Shown: one piece after another, positions 1-4,409 of the stretch
Numbering within the stretch: the first letter of the stretch is position 1
Layout: the number at the start of each line of letters is the position of its first letter
Virus record (IMG/VR): IMGVR_UViG_2713896780_000023
Source of the DNA: a virus
Lineage: Duplodnaviria > Heunggongvirae > Uroviricota > Caudoviricetes
Reading direction: 5' to 3' (one strand)
Length of the DNA: 6,364 bases
Notes under the pieces: generated by a model
What the model was told of the DNA's origin: nothing
Seen by the model: only the letters and a program-made list of their open reading frames with translations
Databases searched by the model: none
Position numbers and translations under genes: made by a program

Positions 1-743
1 ATCAGGCTGTCGTAATGCGCGTCATTGTGGATGTGCTGGCGCAGCCAGGCTTCATCGTGGCGATGTTCGATAATGGTATTGGCGATATGGTGACTGGTAC
101 GCATACCGTTAGTGGCCATCACCGACAGTACGGCATCGGCCATCAGGGAAACGCCTACGTGTGGATCGCAAAACACCTGGCTGATACCTGCCAGTTGTCC
201 CTGGACCTTTGCCACATCCAGCGTGGTTCCGCCTAAATCCACAATCAGCAGGGATTCAAACGGACTCATGTCAGCCAGTGCTTTAAAACCAGCCGGAATG
301 GATTCAGGCATAACCCGTACGTTACGGATAGTGAATGCTTTTCCGTTCTGGTACGCCACCGGGCGCATGACGTTTGCTTTTTTGCGGTTGATGTTGGCCA
401 TGTCCGGCTGTGCGTTTGTGTCGAAATATTCGCTCAGTGGCAGGGTGACAACCACATCCACTTCCTGTGGTGTGATGCCTGATTTGACCAGCGCGTGATG
501 AATGGCAATGACATTCACATCGCTGTACTGGTATTGCGTGTCGGTCGTCTGGACAAAGCGATCGCTGACCGGATCAAAACCATAGCGCACGCCATCAAGC
601 ATGTAGTTTGCGGGCTGCGTGCCACCGAACGGCGCAGACCATTCCGACTTGAAGCTGTTCGGGCTGATGGCGTTGCGGCGTTCGCCGTTCTCAGTCCATG
701 CCAGCTTGATGTTGGTGGAGCCGTCGTCGATACAAATTTTCAT
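1..743 (-). CDS. parM: ParM/StbA-like actin-family plasmid segregation ATPase; N-terminal ~247 aa, 3' end runs off the left edge of the window
   Basis: Reverse-strand ATG at 743..741 preceded by AAGGA 8 nt upstream; open to position 1. Translation begins MKICIDDGSTNIKLAWTENGERRNAISPNSFK and contains QYSDVNVIAIHHAL, VMPESIPAGF and LLIVDLGGTTLDV, which match from memory the phosphate-1, connect and phosphate-2 regions of plasmid R1 ParM (FIDDGSTNIKL, SPNSFK, VMPESIPAG, LLIIDLGGTTLD). Not in the supplied ORF track because it has no in-window stop. Confidence 0.8.
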   Translation of the reverse strand, partial: MKICIDDGSTNIKLAWTENGERRNAISPNSFKSEWSAPFGGTQPANYMLDGVRYGFDPVSDRFVQTTDTQYQYSDVNVIAIHHALVKSGITPQEVDVVVTLPLSEYFDTNAQPDMANINRKKANVMRPVAYQNGKAFTIRNVRVMPESIPAGFKALADMSPFESLLIVDLGGTTLDVAKVQGQLAGISQVFCDPHVGVSLMADAVLSVMATNGMRTSHHIANTIIEHRHDEAWLRQHIHNDAHYDSL

Positions 744-774
744 GTCGCTTTTCCTTATGTTGATTAATTAATCG

Positions 775-814
775 TTTACGGGATTCTGAAATCCCGTTTT
801 TGCCTGTTTTGTGT
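775..814. repeat. Direct repeat copy 1 (40 bp) containing the 20-bp palindrome ACGGGATT-CTGA-AATCCCGT (778-797); lies between rep stop and parM start
   Basis: Read directly: TTTACGGGATTCTGAAATCCCGTTTTTGCCTGTTTTGTGT. Matches copy 2 at about 33 of 40 positions; the 8-bp palindrome arms are identical while the 4-nt spacer differs. Confidence 0.7.
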
Positions 815-819
815 GCGCT

Positions 820-3642
820 TCATATATCGCGGCGCGTTTTTTGCTCATTTACGGGATTTGTGAATCCCGTTTCTGTCTGTTTTTTGTTTCCACTGGTCAG
901 GCCACCCCGCAGCAGGTCTGCTTTGCGGCGGGCACGTTCAGTGGTTTCACTGATTCTCTGTGCGTGCTCTGCGTCGCGGATGGCGCGCAGCATGTCAGAA
1001 AGCACGGTAACGGGTGTTTTCATGGTGTTCTGGTCCTGCTGAAGTGTGGATGCCAGACGTGCGGCGGCTTCGGGGTCTGATGCCCCCAGTTGTTCCAGAT
1101 AGCTGGCGACCGGGTTATGGCGGATCTCTGTGCTGCTTACGCCGTGATTACGGCTCAGGCGCTGCCAGAGCTGCGTGATTCGGCTGTCCGGGCGGGTATC
1201 CGGTTTGCGTACAATTTCAAATCCCTGCGGTGCAATGATGCTGCCGTCAACGTACAGGCTGCCGCCCCGTAACAGGTGCTGCATCTGCTGTTCACCGATA
1301 TGCAGGCCGAGAGATTCGGCAGATTCCCGCCATTCTTTAGCGAGTAATTCGTGGTTATCAGGCAAAGGCCGCTGCTGTTTGCGGCTCTGTGTCCAGCTCT
1401 GCATTTCATCACTGCTGTTTTTTGCCTGTTTGTCACGAAGCGAACGCATCAGCGCCCGGCGTTCGTGCCGTTTCAGTGAGTGCATCCATTCGTTCACTTC
1501 AACGCCATCAGGGAGCTGCGGCCACGGTGCTGGCCGTTCTTCCGGCTGTTCTGTCCCGTTGTTGTTCGTTTCCTGTACACGGGGACAGTTATTGCCACGA
1601 GTCCAAGGGGCGGCAGGGCCGCCCTGAAGGTCAAAACCATTTTCGCGGGCGCTGTCTTCCGCTTCCGGTTTACGTCTTACCAGCTTCCAGTTATCCGGGT
1701 GCGTGCACACGCGGGAAGACTCCCCGATGAGCGGCGACCAGATCCCGTAAATCTGTACACTCTGCTCGCCGTAATCGTTCAGCTCATCTGCGAGGTCGTA
1801 GGCGGTGCGAATCAGGTAGTCTTTGCGTGGAACAAGTACGCCACCCTGTTTCTCAATGTAGGTGGCAAAACATCCGGCATCAGCGGCAGCGAGTACCGCG
1901 TCCATTGCGTCATCCTTCAGCCGTTGCGGGCCTTCCGGGTTGCGTGCCATCTGGCTGGCAAGGCGGCGCAGTTCACGCCACACCTGACGGGAGGGGATAC
2001 CAAAGAACTGGAACTGGCGGACCCGGTGAAGGCGCGCCCAGCCGATGGCGCGTTCCACGCTCTCGGCCATTGATTTTCCGGTTTCGTGGTCAACGCGTGG
2101 CTTGCCCGTTTTCGGGTCGATGCCATCCACGGCGCGGCTGTCCAGGTTCTTTCCGATGTAGGTGGCGATGTAGCTGGTTGGTGTGCCTTTTGAGCCGTCG
2201 ACATACTCCACCTTAAAGCGCGGAGTAATATCATTGCCCAGCTCGTGGCGGTCTTCCTGAATGGCAATATCGCGGGTGATGGTCACGATGCTGTCGATTT
2301 CTTCTGGATGAGCAAAGACCATCATGTGCCAGTGCACGGTGCCGTCATGGTGAGGCTCCACCGTGCGGATGCCATACCAGCGCAGGCCGTCGCGGTTCAG
2401 TTTTTTGCGGACCGCCGCAAAAAACGTGTTAACCAGGTAATCGCTGGAGTCGCGCATGGTGGCCCCGTTCCATTTGGGGTTCGGATGACCGTTCTCCGTT
2501 GTTGCGTGGTATTTTGACGGGCAGGTGACAGTCAGAAACACCGCTCTGTCGCCACGGGCTTCGGCCAGAAGTTCCAGTCCCTTCATGGTGGCCATCATTT
2601 CTGCCTTACGGTGAACCGGGTTACTTACTCCCGCGTAATACACCGTCTCGAGATCAATCGTGAACCCGTCTTCATTTTCCAGCATGAAACTTTTCAGGAA
2701 ATCGCGTGTTTTCTCGCGCTGTGCGCGAAACTCGCTTAACGCGTCCTGGCTCAGATAGGGTGATGTTTTTCTGGAAACCAGACAGGCGGCGCGGAGTTGT
2801 TCTTCTCTCCACTCGCAACGTAACAGCCACAGTTTGCGTTTCCACCATTCCGCACAGGTCAGGCGAAGGATTGCGCCCGGCAGCAGCTCCGTGTCCGGTT
2901 CGTTCCTCCGGTCTTTGTCTGTTGTCAGTGCGTCATAATGTGGAGGCATGGCGTGCAGGTGTAACGCCATGCGGGCCAGCATCTGATACGCCTTCAGCGT
3001 TACATCCATGGTCAGTTCGCCATCAGTCGCGCCAAAGCCATCGCAGAGTTTTTCGAAGGTGCTGCTGAACATCGCCGCCGTCATGGTGGCCAGCGTCTGT
3101 ATCTGGTGTTTGTTGAGCTGCGGCAGGTAAAGCAAATCGTCCAGGCGTTCGCGTCCGGCAAGAGAGCGATAACCCGGTGTCAGCCAGCGGCTGTCGGTGC
3201 GGTCCAGACGTTCGAATATTTTGCGCAGGGTTCCGCGTGCATAGCGTTCCGCCTGCCAGCTCTTTTTGCCTTTCCGGCGATCGGCTTCCTGTTTTTTGCG
3301 CAGGAAGGAGAGGTGGCGAATAAGCGGATCGCGCAGATAGGACGGCAGCAGGCGCAGCGAGGTCATGGCTTCATCCACTGCGCCGCGTGCCTGTTTTCTG
3401 GCGTCTCCTGCCAGTGTGATGGTTTTGTCCTGTTTTTCCTGTGCGTCCAGGCTTTTATTAATCAGGTTGCCCAGCGGCGTGGCGGAGAACGCCGCATCAG
3501 CCATTTCCTGGCGGCGCTCGTTCTCTACCCGGTAGGCATCCAGCCAGGAGGAAAGCGCGGATTCAGGAGCGGGGATCCCCGTTCCTTCACGCCCCACTGC
3601 GTGGCGCGGTTGTTGCCAGTCCCTGATGTACTCTGCCGTCAT
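820..3642 (-). CDS. Rolling-circle replication initiator, HUH endonuclease of the P2 gpA / phiX174 A type (940 aa as drawn), with N- and C-terminal extensions
   Basis: Longest ORF in the window. Motif 1 FLTVT (aa 369-373, about 2524-2538); HUH motif V-H-W-H-M-M-V-F (H437-W438-H439, nt 2326-2334, checked as CAC TGG CAC on the reverse strand); motif 3 S-Y-I-A-T-Y-I-G-K-N-L-D with Y491 (2170-2172) and Y495 (2158-2160), matching the Y-x-x-x-Y-x-x-K pattern of phiX174 A and P2 gpA. ATG at 3642 lies 6 nt after the stop of the upstream ORF with only a weak SD, so coupling or a different start is possible. Confidence 0.75.
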   Translation of the reverse strand: MTAEYIRDWQQPRHAVGREGTGIPAPESALSSWLDAYRVENERRQEMADAAFSATPLGNLINKSLDAQEKQDKTITLAGDARKQARGAVDEAMTSLRLLPSYLRDPLIRHLSFLRKKQEADRRKGKKSWQAERYARGTLRKIFERLDRTDSRWLTPGYRSLAGRERLDDLLYLPQLNKHQIQTLATMTAAMFSSTFEKLCDGFGATDGELTMDVTLKAYQMLARMALHLHAMPPHYDALTTDKDRRNEPDTELLPGAILRLTCAEWWKRKLWLLRCEWREEQLRAACLVSRKTSPYLSQDALSEFRAQREKTRDFLKSFMLENEDGFTIDLETVYYAGVSNPVHRKAEMMATMKGLELLAEARGDRAVFLTVTCPSKYHATTENGHPNPKWNGATMRDSSDYLVNTFFAAVRKKLNRDGLRWYGIRTVEPHHDGTVHWHMMVFAHPEEIDSIVTITRDIAIQEDRHELGNDITPRFKVEYVDGSKGTPTSYIATYIGKNLDSRAVDGIDPKTGKPRVDHETGKSMAESVERAIGWARLHRVRQFQFFGIPSRQVWRELRRLASQMARNPEGPQRLKDDAMDAVLAAADAGCFATYIEKQGGVLVPRKDYLIRTAYDLADELNDYGEQSVQIYGIWSPLIGESSRVCTHPDNWKLVRRKPEAEDSARENGFDLQGGPAAPWTRGNNCPRVQETNNNGTEQPEERPAPWPQLPDGVEVNEWMHSLKRHERRALMRSLRDKQAKNSSDEMQSWTQSRKQQRPLPDNHELLAKEWRESAESLGLHIGEQQMQHLLRGGSLYVDGSIIAPQGFEIVRKPDTRPDSRITQLWQRLSRNHGVSSTEIRHNPVASYLEQLGASDPEAAARLASTLQQDQNTMKTPVTVLSDMLRAIRDAEHAQRISETTERARRKADLLRGGLTSGNKKQTETGFTNPVNEQKTRRDI
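848..887. repeat. Direct repeat copy 2 (40 bp) containing the palindrome ACGGGATT-TGTG-AATCCCGT (851-870); lies inside the last ~22 codons of the rep CDS
   Basis: Read directly: TTTACGGGATTTGTGAATCCCGTTTCTGTCTGTTTTTTGT; start-to-start spacing from copy 1 is 73 bp. Confidence 0.7.
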
Positions 3643-4083: not shown

Positions 4084-4133
4084 NNNNNNNNNNNNNNNNN
4101 NNNNNNNNNNNNNNNNNNNNNNNNNNNNNNNNN
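4084..4133. other. N-masked block (50 nt), sequence unknown
   Basis: Run of n characters in the input. Confidence 1.
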
Positions 4134-4358: not shown

Positions 4359-4409
4359 NNNNNNNNNNNNNNNNNNNNNNNNNNNNNNNNNNNNNNNNNN
4401 NNNNNNNNN
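4359..4409. other. N-masked block (51 nt), sequence unknown
   Basis: Run of n characters in the input. Confidence 1.

Follow-up and report, generated by a model that had tools for sequence, protein, structure and literature searches.

The window, a stretch of 6,364 nucleotides from the genome record of a tailed phage (Caudoviricetes; IMGVR_UViG_2713896780_000023), carries on its minus strand a replication initiator gene, here gene A, whose product reaches 940 residues. This raises the question as to what the last third of so long a protein represents. The sequence-only reading of this DNA had described an extension of about 300 residues beyond the catalytic core, attached by a low-complexity linker. 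The answer that emerges is probably a more familiar one: the 3′ third of an ordinary P2-type gene A, with an embedded replication origin, a post-origin architecture shared with its relatives, read-through into a neighbouring cassette, and exchange of the post-origin part as a recombination cassette.

The initiator and the extent of its conserved core

820-3642, minus strand: gene A, a single open reading frame for a 940-aa gpA-type rolling-circle replication initiator (stop codon 820-822)
2134-3108, minus strand: Pfam Phage_GPA catalytic domain, aa 179-503, from the Pfam match and the P2 alignment
2326-2334, minus strand: HUH motif H437-W-H439, invariant in 24 relatives
2158-2172, minus strand: active-site tyrosines Y491/Y495, aligned on P2 Y450/Y454, invariant in 24 relatives
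1675-2133, minus strand: aa 504-656, conserved continuation of the core outside the Pfam model, from the alignment of relatives and dN/dS

The gene A product scores 435.1 bits with the Pfam family PF05840 (Phage_GPA; cutoff 31.4), the match spanning aa 179-503 and all of the profile (1-321 of 321), and its tyrosine pair shows the three-residue spacing that membership in the gpA-type initiators requires. The gene is about 97% identical in nucleotides to annotated replication endonuclease genes of P88-like phages. The endonuclease of Escherichia phage P88 (Xuanwuvirus; YP_009113059) likewise has 940 aa, keeps this identity over the whole gene and, as here, is followed by parM and the gene of a partition protein; it differs by point changes only, including some in the first of the two palindromes listed further below, and its public annotation reads just “replication endonuclease”, without origin or domain features. 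Judged by these matches, the open reading frame 820-3642 encodes a gpA-type initiator and belongs to a P2-family prophage of the P88-like (Xuanwuvirus) kind. It is intact in database clusters of 707, 3,025 and 16,881 sequences, the last being a 90%-identity cluster of the protein.

In P2, gpA is a cis-acting rolling-circle initiator; initiators of this type are characterised by site-specific nicking of a single strand, to which they become covalently attached, and by their dependence on the Rep helicase of the host. The gene A product shares with P2 gpA and the A protein of phage 186 the Phage_GPA domain, the HUH motif and the Tyr-x3-Tyr active site; P2 gpA aligns with it at 30% identity over aa 77-800. 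In terms of length, it exceeds both the 761 aa of P2 gpA (the figure of about 760 given in the sequence-only reading was accurate) and the 694 aa of 186 A. The catalytic motifs do end near aa 500, as had been noted, since H437-H439 and Y491/Y495 all precede that position and the Pfam domain stops at aa 503. However, the conserved core runs on to aa 656, and P2 gpA aligns as far as about aa 800-817. The segment aa 504-656 contains many residues invariant in the 24 relatives, up to W652, is as close to P2 as the Pfam domain is (35% versus 36% identity) and has a dN/dS of 0.01-0.09; as it is no less conserved than the Pfam domain, it reads as family core and not as extension. At the other end of the protein, the proposed N-terminal extension of about 45 residues before M47 disappears: a WxW(N/Q)xPRxA motif at aa 7-16 is kept family-wide, including in P2 (YAWNAPREAVGRE), and M47 is not conserved.

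The protein downstream of the linker

1423-1503, minus strand: conserved basic helix EWMHSLKRHERRALMRSLRDKQ, aa 714-740, predicted helical
1348-1422, minus strand: second variable polar linker, aa 741-765, with pLDDT below 50 for aa 737-757
1048-1347, minus strand: folded C-terminal domain, aa 766-865, pLDDT 75-87
1192-1320, minus strand: “LLRGG” mini-domain, aa 775-817, family-wide, forming the C-terminus of diverse gpA relatives
895-1047, minus strand: lineage-specific long helix, aa 866-916, modelled as a helix over 857-913

The arrangement of a linker, a basic helix and a small C-terminal domain after the origin also occurs in the A proteins of P2, Fels-2, PSP3 and ENT90, and is among the likenesses to P2 gpA and 186 A. 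Counterparts of the basic helix, with the pattern ..RRELxxRLR..KP, are found in the four named phages and in metagenomic relatives, and the LLRGG domain aligns by hhalign with the C-termini of Fels-2, PSP3 and ENT90 with a probability of 83% (E = 9e-6). Two AlphaFold2 models, built from shallow alignments and moderate in quality (mean pLDDT 60 and 72), were used; for aa 766-865 two helices, a three-stranded sheet and then three further helices are predicted. The description of the C-terminal region as basic and helical therefore needs qualifying on both counts, as its net charge is just mildly positive (+3 for aa 721-800, +5 for aa 801-940) and the model places a sheet at aa 796-814.

What remains of the extension is its far end. 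The P2 protein aligns to about aa 800 and its mini-domain matches aa 775-817, whereas aa 818-940, about 125 residues, are absent from P2 gpA. The greater part of the supposed 300-residue addition is thus the usual second half of a P2-type initiator, and only some 125 residues are lineage-specific, which makes the finding a largely ordinary one. The sequence-only reading had set its added domain against a standard, conserved part of known function in the homologues; the conservation holds for aa 504-817, the known function does not, and the literature yielded no described function for the C-terminus of the P2 A protein. Compared with P2 and 186, the C-terminal domain is longer by three helices and a helix of about 50 aa. 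The lineage-specific parts are the three extra helices (aa 818-865), which are common to a subset of relatives including distant ones of about 840 aa, the long helix (aa 866-916) and the last 21 residues. In tblastn searches the long helix, like the last 140 aa as a whole, was found only in 14 P88-like phage records; a Hafnia relative and recombinants have it as well, and it is kept in variants of 910 and 916 aa that have different downstream cargo. Both the folded domain (dN/dS 0.09-0.28) and the long helix (about 0.37) are under purifying selection.

Intact-looking A open reading frames of 639-670 codons end only 8-23 aa past the nick, so that the post-origin module is probably accessory. 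Our best guess, a tentative one, is that it tethers the protein to the origin or recruits a host factor and is dispensable for the nicking chemistry. Sequence searches of the PDB with the full protein and with a profile of the C-terminal domain gave no match, nor did an NCBIfam search or a Pfam search with 18 C-terminal domain sequences at E <= 10; with neither a fold nor a family match, the function of the domain remains inferred. A resemblance of the LLRGG motif to an excisionase/AlpA-like winged helix was considered, and no test supported it.

A more specific proposal starts from RepB of pMV158, which has a nic locus and a distant bind locus: the C-terminal domain could be a winged-helix-like module for sequence-specific recognition of an accessory site in the DNA transferred along with it, in the manner of bind. 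The layout of two helices and a β-sheet behind an arginine-rich helix fits this proposal, and so does the constant association of the module with the DNA 3′ of the nick, even next to a catalytic core of only 51% identity; candidate sites are offered by an inverted repeat (1348-1366 and 1421-1439) and by a 13-mer common to the region upstream of parM. However, neither structure nor profile comparisons linked the domain significantly to a DNA-binding fold, winged-helix and HTH folds included, aa 766-865 are not basic (net charge about -2 by residue count), the repeats are short enough to arise by chance, and some A proteins lack the module entirely, so that sequence-specific binding is unlikely.

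Less probable still is the view closest to the original one, that everything after the catalytic part (aa ~640-940) is a lineage-added domain, for instance for DNA binding or helicase recruitment, placed on an ordinary flexible linker. Its appeal comes from the 179 aa by which the protein exceeds P2 gpA, from the restriction of tblastn matches for the last 140 aa to P88-like phages, and from the mere 27 matches that aa 714-940 found among 1.84 billion representative proteins. Against it stand the alignment of P2 gpA to about aa 800, the occurrence of linker, basic helix and LLRGG mini-domain in P2, Fels-2, PSP3 and ENT90, and the sharing of aa 818-865 with the distant relatives of about 840 aa; only aa 866-916 are restricted to the lineage, as aa 920-940 are read-through into a cassette.

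The linker and the replication origin

1504-1674, minus strand: disordered low-complexity linker with the origin, aa 657-713, from pLDDT, composition and dN/dS
1608-1624, minus strand: origin hairpin GGGCGGC-CCT-GCCGCCC, with a 7-bp stem and a 3-nt loop, from covariation
1581-1612, minus strand: invariant 32-nt origin core CGCCCCTTGGACTCGTGGCAATAACTGTCCCC, from nucleotide identity across four genera
1551-1588, minus strand: lineage-specific inverted repeat CTGTCCCCGTGT / ACAACGGGACAG, which begins at the 3′ edge of the core; its significance is uncertain

As for the linker itself, the coordinates of the sequence-only reading and the Pro/Gly/Asn-rich stretch are real, and its interpretation was partly right. 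The peptide it quoted, GGPAAPWTRGNNCPRVQETNNNGTEQPEERPAPWPQLPDG, is found at aa 674-713 (window 1623-1504); residues P, G, N, Q, S and T make up 47% of aa 657-720 versus 27-34% elsewhere upstream; and AlphaFold2 predicts disorder for aa 660-706 (pLDDT about 30), so that a low-complexity linker does part the enzymatic portion from the folded C-terminal module. What was overlooked is that this linker is the replication origin.

Relative to its flanks, the linker has a lowered dS and a raised dN/dS. The 32-nt core is the longest nucleotide-identical run in gene A across four genera, and its degenerate third codon positions are identical in 9 of 9 cases against a background of 0.377. The records of P2 and 186 each annotate a site within gene A, a nick at 29892 (codon 620) for P2 and an origin at codon 611 for 186, and these two codons share an alignment column with W680 (about window 1604), within the nick core peptide WTRGNNCP. 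The predicted nick would accordingly adjoin window 1604, in the W680 codon, its position and strand being carried over from P2, whose record annotates the nick as a position alone, with no strand. Upstream of the core, the hairpin DNA encodes part of the peptide GGPAAP. Of 80 distinct origin variants, 82.5% have a hairpin here, versus 4.5% of shuffles; its stems comprise 18 different sequences, compensatory changes are seen in 6 of 7 pairs, and the observed covariation score was reached by none of 500 shuffles. Homology and DNA-level constraint together point to an origin inside the initiator's own coding sequence, in keeping with the Peduovirinae, in which the origin lies within gpA and the nick site is conserved (PMC8537503, PMC3986222). 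A second hairpin 3′ of the core was considered as a family-wide element; its enrichment was weak (27% versus 12% of shuffles, for stems of at least 6 bp), and it was kept as the lineage-specific inverted repeat listed above.

Could AAPWTRGNNCP be conserved as a functional peptide, for instance a motif that contains Cys or contacts the substrate? Residues A678 to C686 do not vary among the 24 relatives, and the NNC tripeptide is retained even in P2, 186 and ENT90. Yet a peptide would not account for the invariance of the third positions, the peptide just upstream varies (GGPAAP, SGIAAP, GACAP, GAPAPS, DAPASP) with pairing kept by compensatory changes, the segment is predicted to be disordered, and the P2 and 186 records place the origin exactly there; conservation for the sake of the peptide is very improbable. 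The peptide GGPAAPWTRGNNCP may instead be regarded as a by-product, because the underlying DNA is fixed, and as tolerated because it is located in a disordered linker.

Based on homology to P2, the HUH/Tyr-Tyr domain of the A protein (aa 179-503 with aa 504-656) would nick next to window 1604, bind the 5′ end covalently and start leading-strand synthesis. The origin is laid out as a 7-bp G+C hairpin (1624-1608), 3 nt and the invariant nick core (to 1581), and the 3′ third of gene A works twice, as DNA and as protein. With P2 and 186 it shares the location of the nick site, at an aligned codon in the last third of the gene, and the hairpin 5′ of the nick; the nick core reads CCTTGGACTCGTGGCAATAAC in gene A and CCTCGGAGTCCTGTCAATAAC in P2, and the stem counts 7 bp in gene A and 5 bp in P2. 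Conjugative relaxase oriT and other HUH origins, such as the nic site of pMV158 RepB, also combine a conserved inverted repeat, its stem co-varying, with an enzyme site that follows a few nucleotides further 3′; this is a resemblance in layout only, without sequence relationship, and the gene A origin is embedded in coding sequence.

The end of the gene and the parM/stbB cassette

823-885, minus strand: last 21 residues KKQTETGFTNPVNEQKTRRDI, aa 920-940, from read-through into the parM/stbB cassette at its left end
772-814 and 845-887: two 43-nt direct repeats, with 0 matches expected by chance
778-797 and 851-870: two 20-bp palindromes ACGGGATT-N4-AATCCCGT, one per 43-nt repeat, 73 bp apart

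The final 21 residues, which P2 and 186 lack, do not belong to the initiator proper; the reading frame continues into conserved DNA upstream of parM/stbB. At locus L142, an unrelated 155-aa open reading frame upstream of parM ends in the same 21 aa, encoded by the same DNA; in Hafnia the stop codon of A falls in the loop of palindrome 1; at locus L141 a 1-nt deletion shifts the frame; and aa 920-940 have a pLDDT below 50. The repeats (772-887) lie just upstream of parM (ATG 743-741, minus strand), which is followed by stbB, and the palindrome region is conserved at the DNA level, regardless of reading frame, in E. coli, Salmonella and Hafnia loci. The palindromes are considered as a candidate parC-like centromere or operator of a ParMRC locus; in comparison, parC of plasmid R1 consists of arrays of direct repeats, whereas two palindromes are present here. 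A reading of the palindromes as a terminator was not adopted; the pattern matches on the plus strand only, antisense to A and parM. Plasmid DNA was rejected as the source of the tail: blastn and tblastn searches of 72,556 plasmids gave homology only within parM or in copies of the same prophage.

Recombination junctions after the origin are found at aa 689 (the 3′ edge of the core), 746, 905-908 and 920; homology with loci L018 and L142, for instance, ends at aa 746 (window about 1406), and a 186/Fels-2-like backbone carries the same post-origin module together with parM/stbB. The post-origin part is a recombination cassette exchanged between phages. These junctions agree with the position of gene A, which here as in P2 and 186 anchors on its left side the gpA-gpQ region, a known hotspot for cargo that at times carries partition systems (PMC9122126). 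A bolder version, possible if rather doubtful, is that the 32-nt core, also the site of the programmed nick, acts as a portable junction for recombination, so that all that lies 3′ of the nick (including the C-terminal module and cargo such as parM/stbB or defence genes) is shuffled among otherwise distant P2-family phages; the module could in turn have a fold not described before and tether the initiator to a co-transferred DNA site or a host factor.

That the C-terminal part is a separate product, whether of a fused or frameshifted downstream gene or of internal initiation near M720 in the manner of phiX174 A/A*, is barely credible: the record of phage 503458 does annotate the region as several coding sequences, a stand-alone 152-aa protein with the C-terminal domain exists on 35 contigs and the last 21 aa are truly shared with another open reading frame, but the portal gene of 503458 is fragmented too, which indicates sequencing errors, the 152-aa copy belongs to a decayed prophage whose A, portal and terminase genes are truncated, the C-terminal domain and the origin lie in the same open reading frame at 33 of 33 loci and the domain in a frame of its own at none, its dN/dS is 0.09-0.28, and M720 is preceded by no GGAG/AGGA-type Shine-Dalgarno sequence on direct reading of the DNA and is a Leu in several relatives, so that no internal start is conserved. 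Gene A resembles phiX174 gene A in having the origin within the initiator's own gene and in encoding a HUH/two-tyrosine enzyme; it differs in that neither a conserved internal start nor a strong Shine-Dalgarno sequence supports an A*-like product. Split gene, conserved internal start and N-terminal extension thus all fall away.

The main value of these results is the correction of an interpretation: a “linker” of odd composition in a phage initiator is cis-acting DNA, a hairpin and a nick site, that the ribosome translates through, which calls for caution in compact genomes wherever low-complexity protein segments are scored as domain boundaries or fusions. Exact origin coordinates are now given for the P88-like prophages, a very common group in E. 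coli. The boundary of the gpA-gpQ cargo hotspot extends into the initiator gene; the C-terminus of the initiator is therefore mosaic, its last 21 residues being set by whichever cassette follows.

Gene A and its alignment with the P2 initiator

Gene A is a single long open reading frame (ORF) of 940 amino acids (aa; 820-3642, minus strand), the product of which matches the Pfam Phage_GPA model over aa 179-503 (435 bits) and PHROG 91 ('nicking at origin of replication') from end to end; at the DNA level, it is 97% identical to genes annotated as 'replication endonuclease' in Escherichia phage P88 and further Xuanwuvirus members (P2 family, Peduoviridae). With P2 gpA (761 aa, from NC_001895) as the reference, aa 77-800 align, and Y491/Y495 fall opposite the P2 active-site residues Y450/Y454. 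The sequence-only reading had assigned everything beyond the catalytic core to a C-terminal extension of about 300 aa; a lineage-specific addition does exist, but it amounts to about 125 aa. The segment aa 504-656 is 35% identical to P2, versus 36% for the Pfam domain, and contains numerous invariant residues as far as W652 (24 relatives); it belongs to the core, outside the reach of the Pfam model.

An N-terminal extension of about 45 aa before M47 had also been proposed; it is contradicted by the WxW(N/Q)xPRxA motif at aa 7-16, kept in all relatives and in P2 (YAWNAPREAVGRE), and by M47 itself, which is not conserved. The stop codon of the upstream ORF lies 6 nt ahead of the gene A ATG, an arrangement reminiscent of the translational coupling that the record of phage 186 mentions. 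Elsewhere in the window, an Rfam C4 antisense RNA (RF01695; 4260-4347, minus strand) is matched with 78.5 bits (gathering score 45); the match is flanked by masked N runs (4084-4133 and 4359-4409) and lies upstream of where a derepression protein is annotated in P88.

A replication origin within the linker

The low-complexity linker is borne out: aa 657-720 are enriched in P/G/N/Q/S/T, aa 660-706 are predicted to be disordered (AlphaFold2), and the linker peptide originally described maps to aa 674-713 (1623-1504). Published work locates the P2 origin inside gpA and describes the nick sequence as conserved across Peduovirinae (PMC8537503, PMC3986222). In the P2 record, the origin nick is annotated at 29892, in codon 620 of gene A, and the 186 record places the origin at codon 611 of its own gene A; when ten A genes are aligned by codon, the two positions share the column of W680 (1605-1603). 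Around this residue, the A genes of the window, Yersinia phage MLG42, Klebsiella Dagavirus and Fels-2 show a protein identity of just 43%, and a 32-nt run (CGCCCCTTGGACTCGTGGCAATAACTGTCCCC, 1612-1581) is perfectly identical in all four. This run is the longest identical stretch in the whole gene, exceeding the one at the HUH motif in the same four-gene comparison; all nine of its degenerate third positions agree (background 0.377), and dS is lowered in the linker. Judged from these comparisons, the 'linker' is the replication origin written within gene A, the 'NN' of its peptide being AATAAC translated. Gene A is a known P2-family initiator with the origin inside its own gene, and the finding is largely an ordinary one.

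Next to the origin core lies the following element:

1624-1608, minus strand: G+C hairpin GGGCGGC-CCT-GCCGCCC, directly 5' of the origin core

A nick-core scan of viral contigs gave 120 loci, and 80 distinct variants were scored for a perfect stem of at least 5 bp with its end 3-8 nt ahead of the core's GGA. Such a hairpin is present in 82.5% of the variants, compared with 4.5% of shuffles and 3.75% of displaced windows, and is built from 18 different stem sequences. Within the 3-nt-loop class (22 sequences), six of the seven pairs show compensatory double changes, and the covariation score reaches 0.341 versus 0.065 for shuffles (none of 500 as high), with far lower covariation in all slid registers. 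The peptide differs by lineage (SGIAAP, GACAP, GAPAPS, DAPASP) and base pairing is retained; the Gly/Pro/Ala-rich GGPAAP is therefore a translated DNA hairpin. A second inverted repeat (1588-1551) is weakly enriched across the family.

The post-origin region and the parM/stbB cassette

All family members examined share a layout in which a variable linker is followed by a basic helix, a second polar linker and a small domain:

aa 714-740: basic helix, EWMHSLKRHERRALMRSLRD; pattern in relatives ..RRELxxRLR..KP
aa 775-817: small C-terminal domain, motif GxxxSxxxxxLLRGG...G in the family members examined

When the small domain is profiled from Xuanwuvirus-type and metagenomic relatives, hhalign pairs the profile with the C-termini of Fels-2, PSP3 and ENT90 over the 43 columns of aa 775-817 (probability 83%, E = 9e-6). 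P2 gpA terminates just past this LLRGG mini-domain; in the lineage of gene A, the domain goes on through three helices as far as about aa 865, which it has in common with distant relatives of some 840 aa, themselves ending about 10 residues further on. Next comes a long helix predicted at aa 857-913 (AlphaFold2); tblastn matches to it come solely from P88-like phages, and it is also present in a Hafnia relative and in recombinants. Purifying selection acts on both the C-terminal domain (dN/dS 0.09-0.28) and the long helix (about 0.37). Across 127 loci, between 8 and 275 aa follow the nick (median 130), the 261 aa of the gene A product falling in the top tenth; the post-origin module looks accessory, as certain A ORFs, 639-670 codons long, end 8-23 aa past the nick. 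In the viral contigs L021, L098, L027 and L071, the A ORF extends for 639-670 codons ahead of the nick and ends 8-45 codons beyond the nick core; these would be candidate initiators nearly without the module.

That the C-terminal region is a fused or frameshifted separate gene could draw on phage 503458 (L002, NC_049341), where gene A is broken into several CDS, and on a stand-alone 152-aa C-terminal copy beside a 254-aa A fragment, broken at the origin linker. The portal gene of 503458 is fragmented too, probably through sequencing errors, and the 152-aa copy belongs to a widespread decayed prophage (L011-L013); a domain profile hit the origin-bearing ORF in 33 of 33 loci and a separate ORF in none, which speaks against this reading. 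An internal start near M720 is disfavoured, as M720 is not conserved among relatives.

The end of gene A adjoins a partition cassette:

1-743, minus strand: parM/StbA actin-like partition gene, starting at 743 (MKICIDDGSTN...) and running off the window
772-814 and 845-887: two 43-nt direct repeats 73 bp apart, one in the last gene A codons, the other in the A-parM spacer
778-797 and 851-870: 20-bp palindrome ACGGGATT-N4-AATCCCGT in each repeat

The repeats lie on either side of the gene A stop codon, close upstream of parM, and their DNA is conserved across E. coli, Salmonella and Hafnia loci irrespective of reading frame. In L142, an unrelated 155-aa ORF ahead of parM ends with the same last 21 residues and the same DNA as gene A; a Hafnia relative has its A stop codon within the first palindrome's loop, L141 has its frame altered by a 1-nt deletion, and in variants of 910 and 916 aa, which carry different cargo downstream, homology breaks off at aa 905-908. 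Residues 920-940, predicted to be disordered, are thus a read-through of the cassette's upstream DNA, an accident of the neighbour. The palindromes may be a ParR/StbB operator or parC-like site; on the plus strand, they also fit a terminator pattern. An exact 13-mer (TTTTTGCCTGTTT) occurs in the parM upstream repeat (797-809) and in gene A coding sequence (1419-1431, aa ~737-744), and an inverted repeat (1348-1366/1421-1439) lies within gene A; either could be due to chance or be a putative accessory binding site. The 151-155-aa ORF (L142:5628-6095, L018:5637-6092) overlaps the alternative, P0061/P0046-type A stop by 4 nt, and in L142 replaces the window's gene A tail upstream of parM. In related loci, stbB follows parM. 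The same A-parM region is carried by NZ_CP148288.1 (34,461 bp, plasmid collection), an indication that prophages of this type can occur as plasmids.

Mosaicism at both ends of the initiator

The A proteins of relatives are chimeras with joins around the origin. In P0115 and P0116, identity to the gene A product is 51-54% before the origin and 94-100% after it, P0116 lying in a 186/Fels-2-like backbone with parM/stbB following; P0078 is 93-98% identical before and 26-31% after, its DNA homology stopping at aa 689, the exact 3' edge of the 32-nt core, and for P0061 and P0046 the changeover falls at aa 746. At the other end, aa 1-178 (3109-3642) share about 52% identity with relatives that match aa 179-656 at 93-99%, and form a separate exchangeable mosaic module, so that the initiator has exchangeable modules at both ends. 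The gpA-gpQ interval is a diversity hotspot that sometimes carries partition systems (PMC9122126), and the chimeric relatives fit with gene A as its left anchor.
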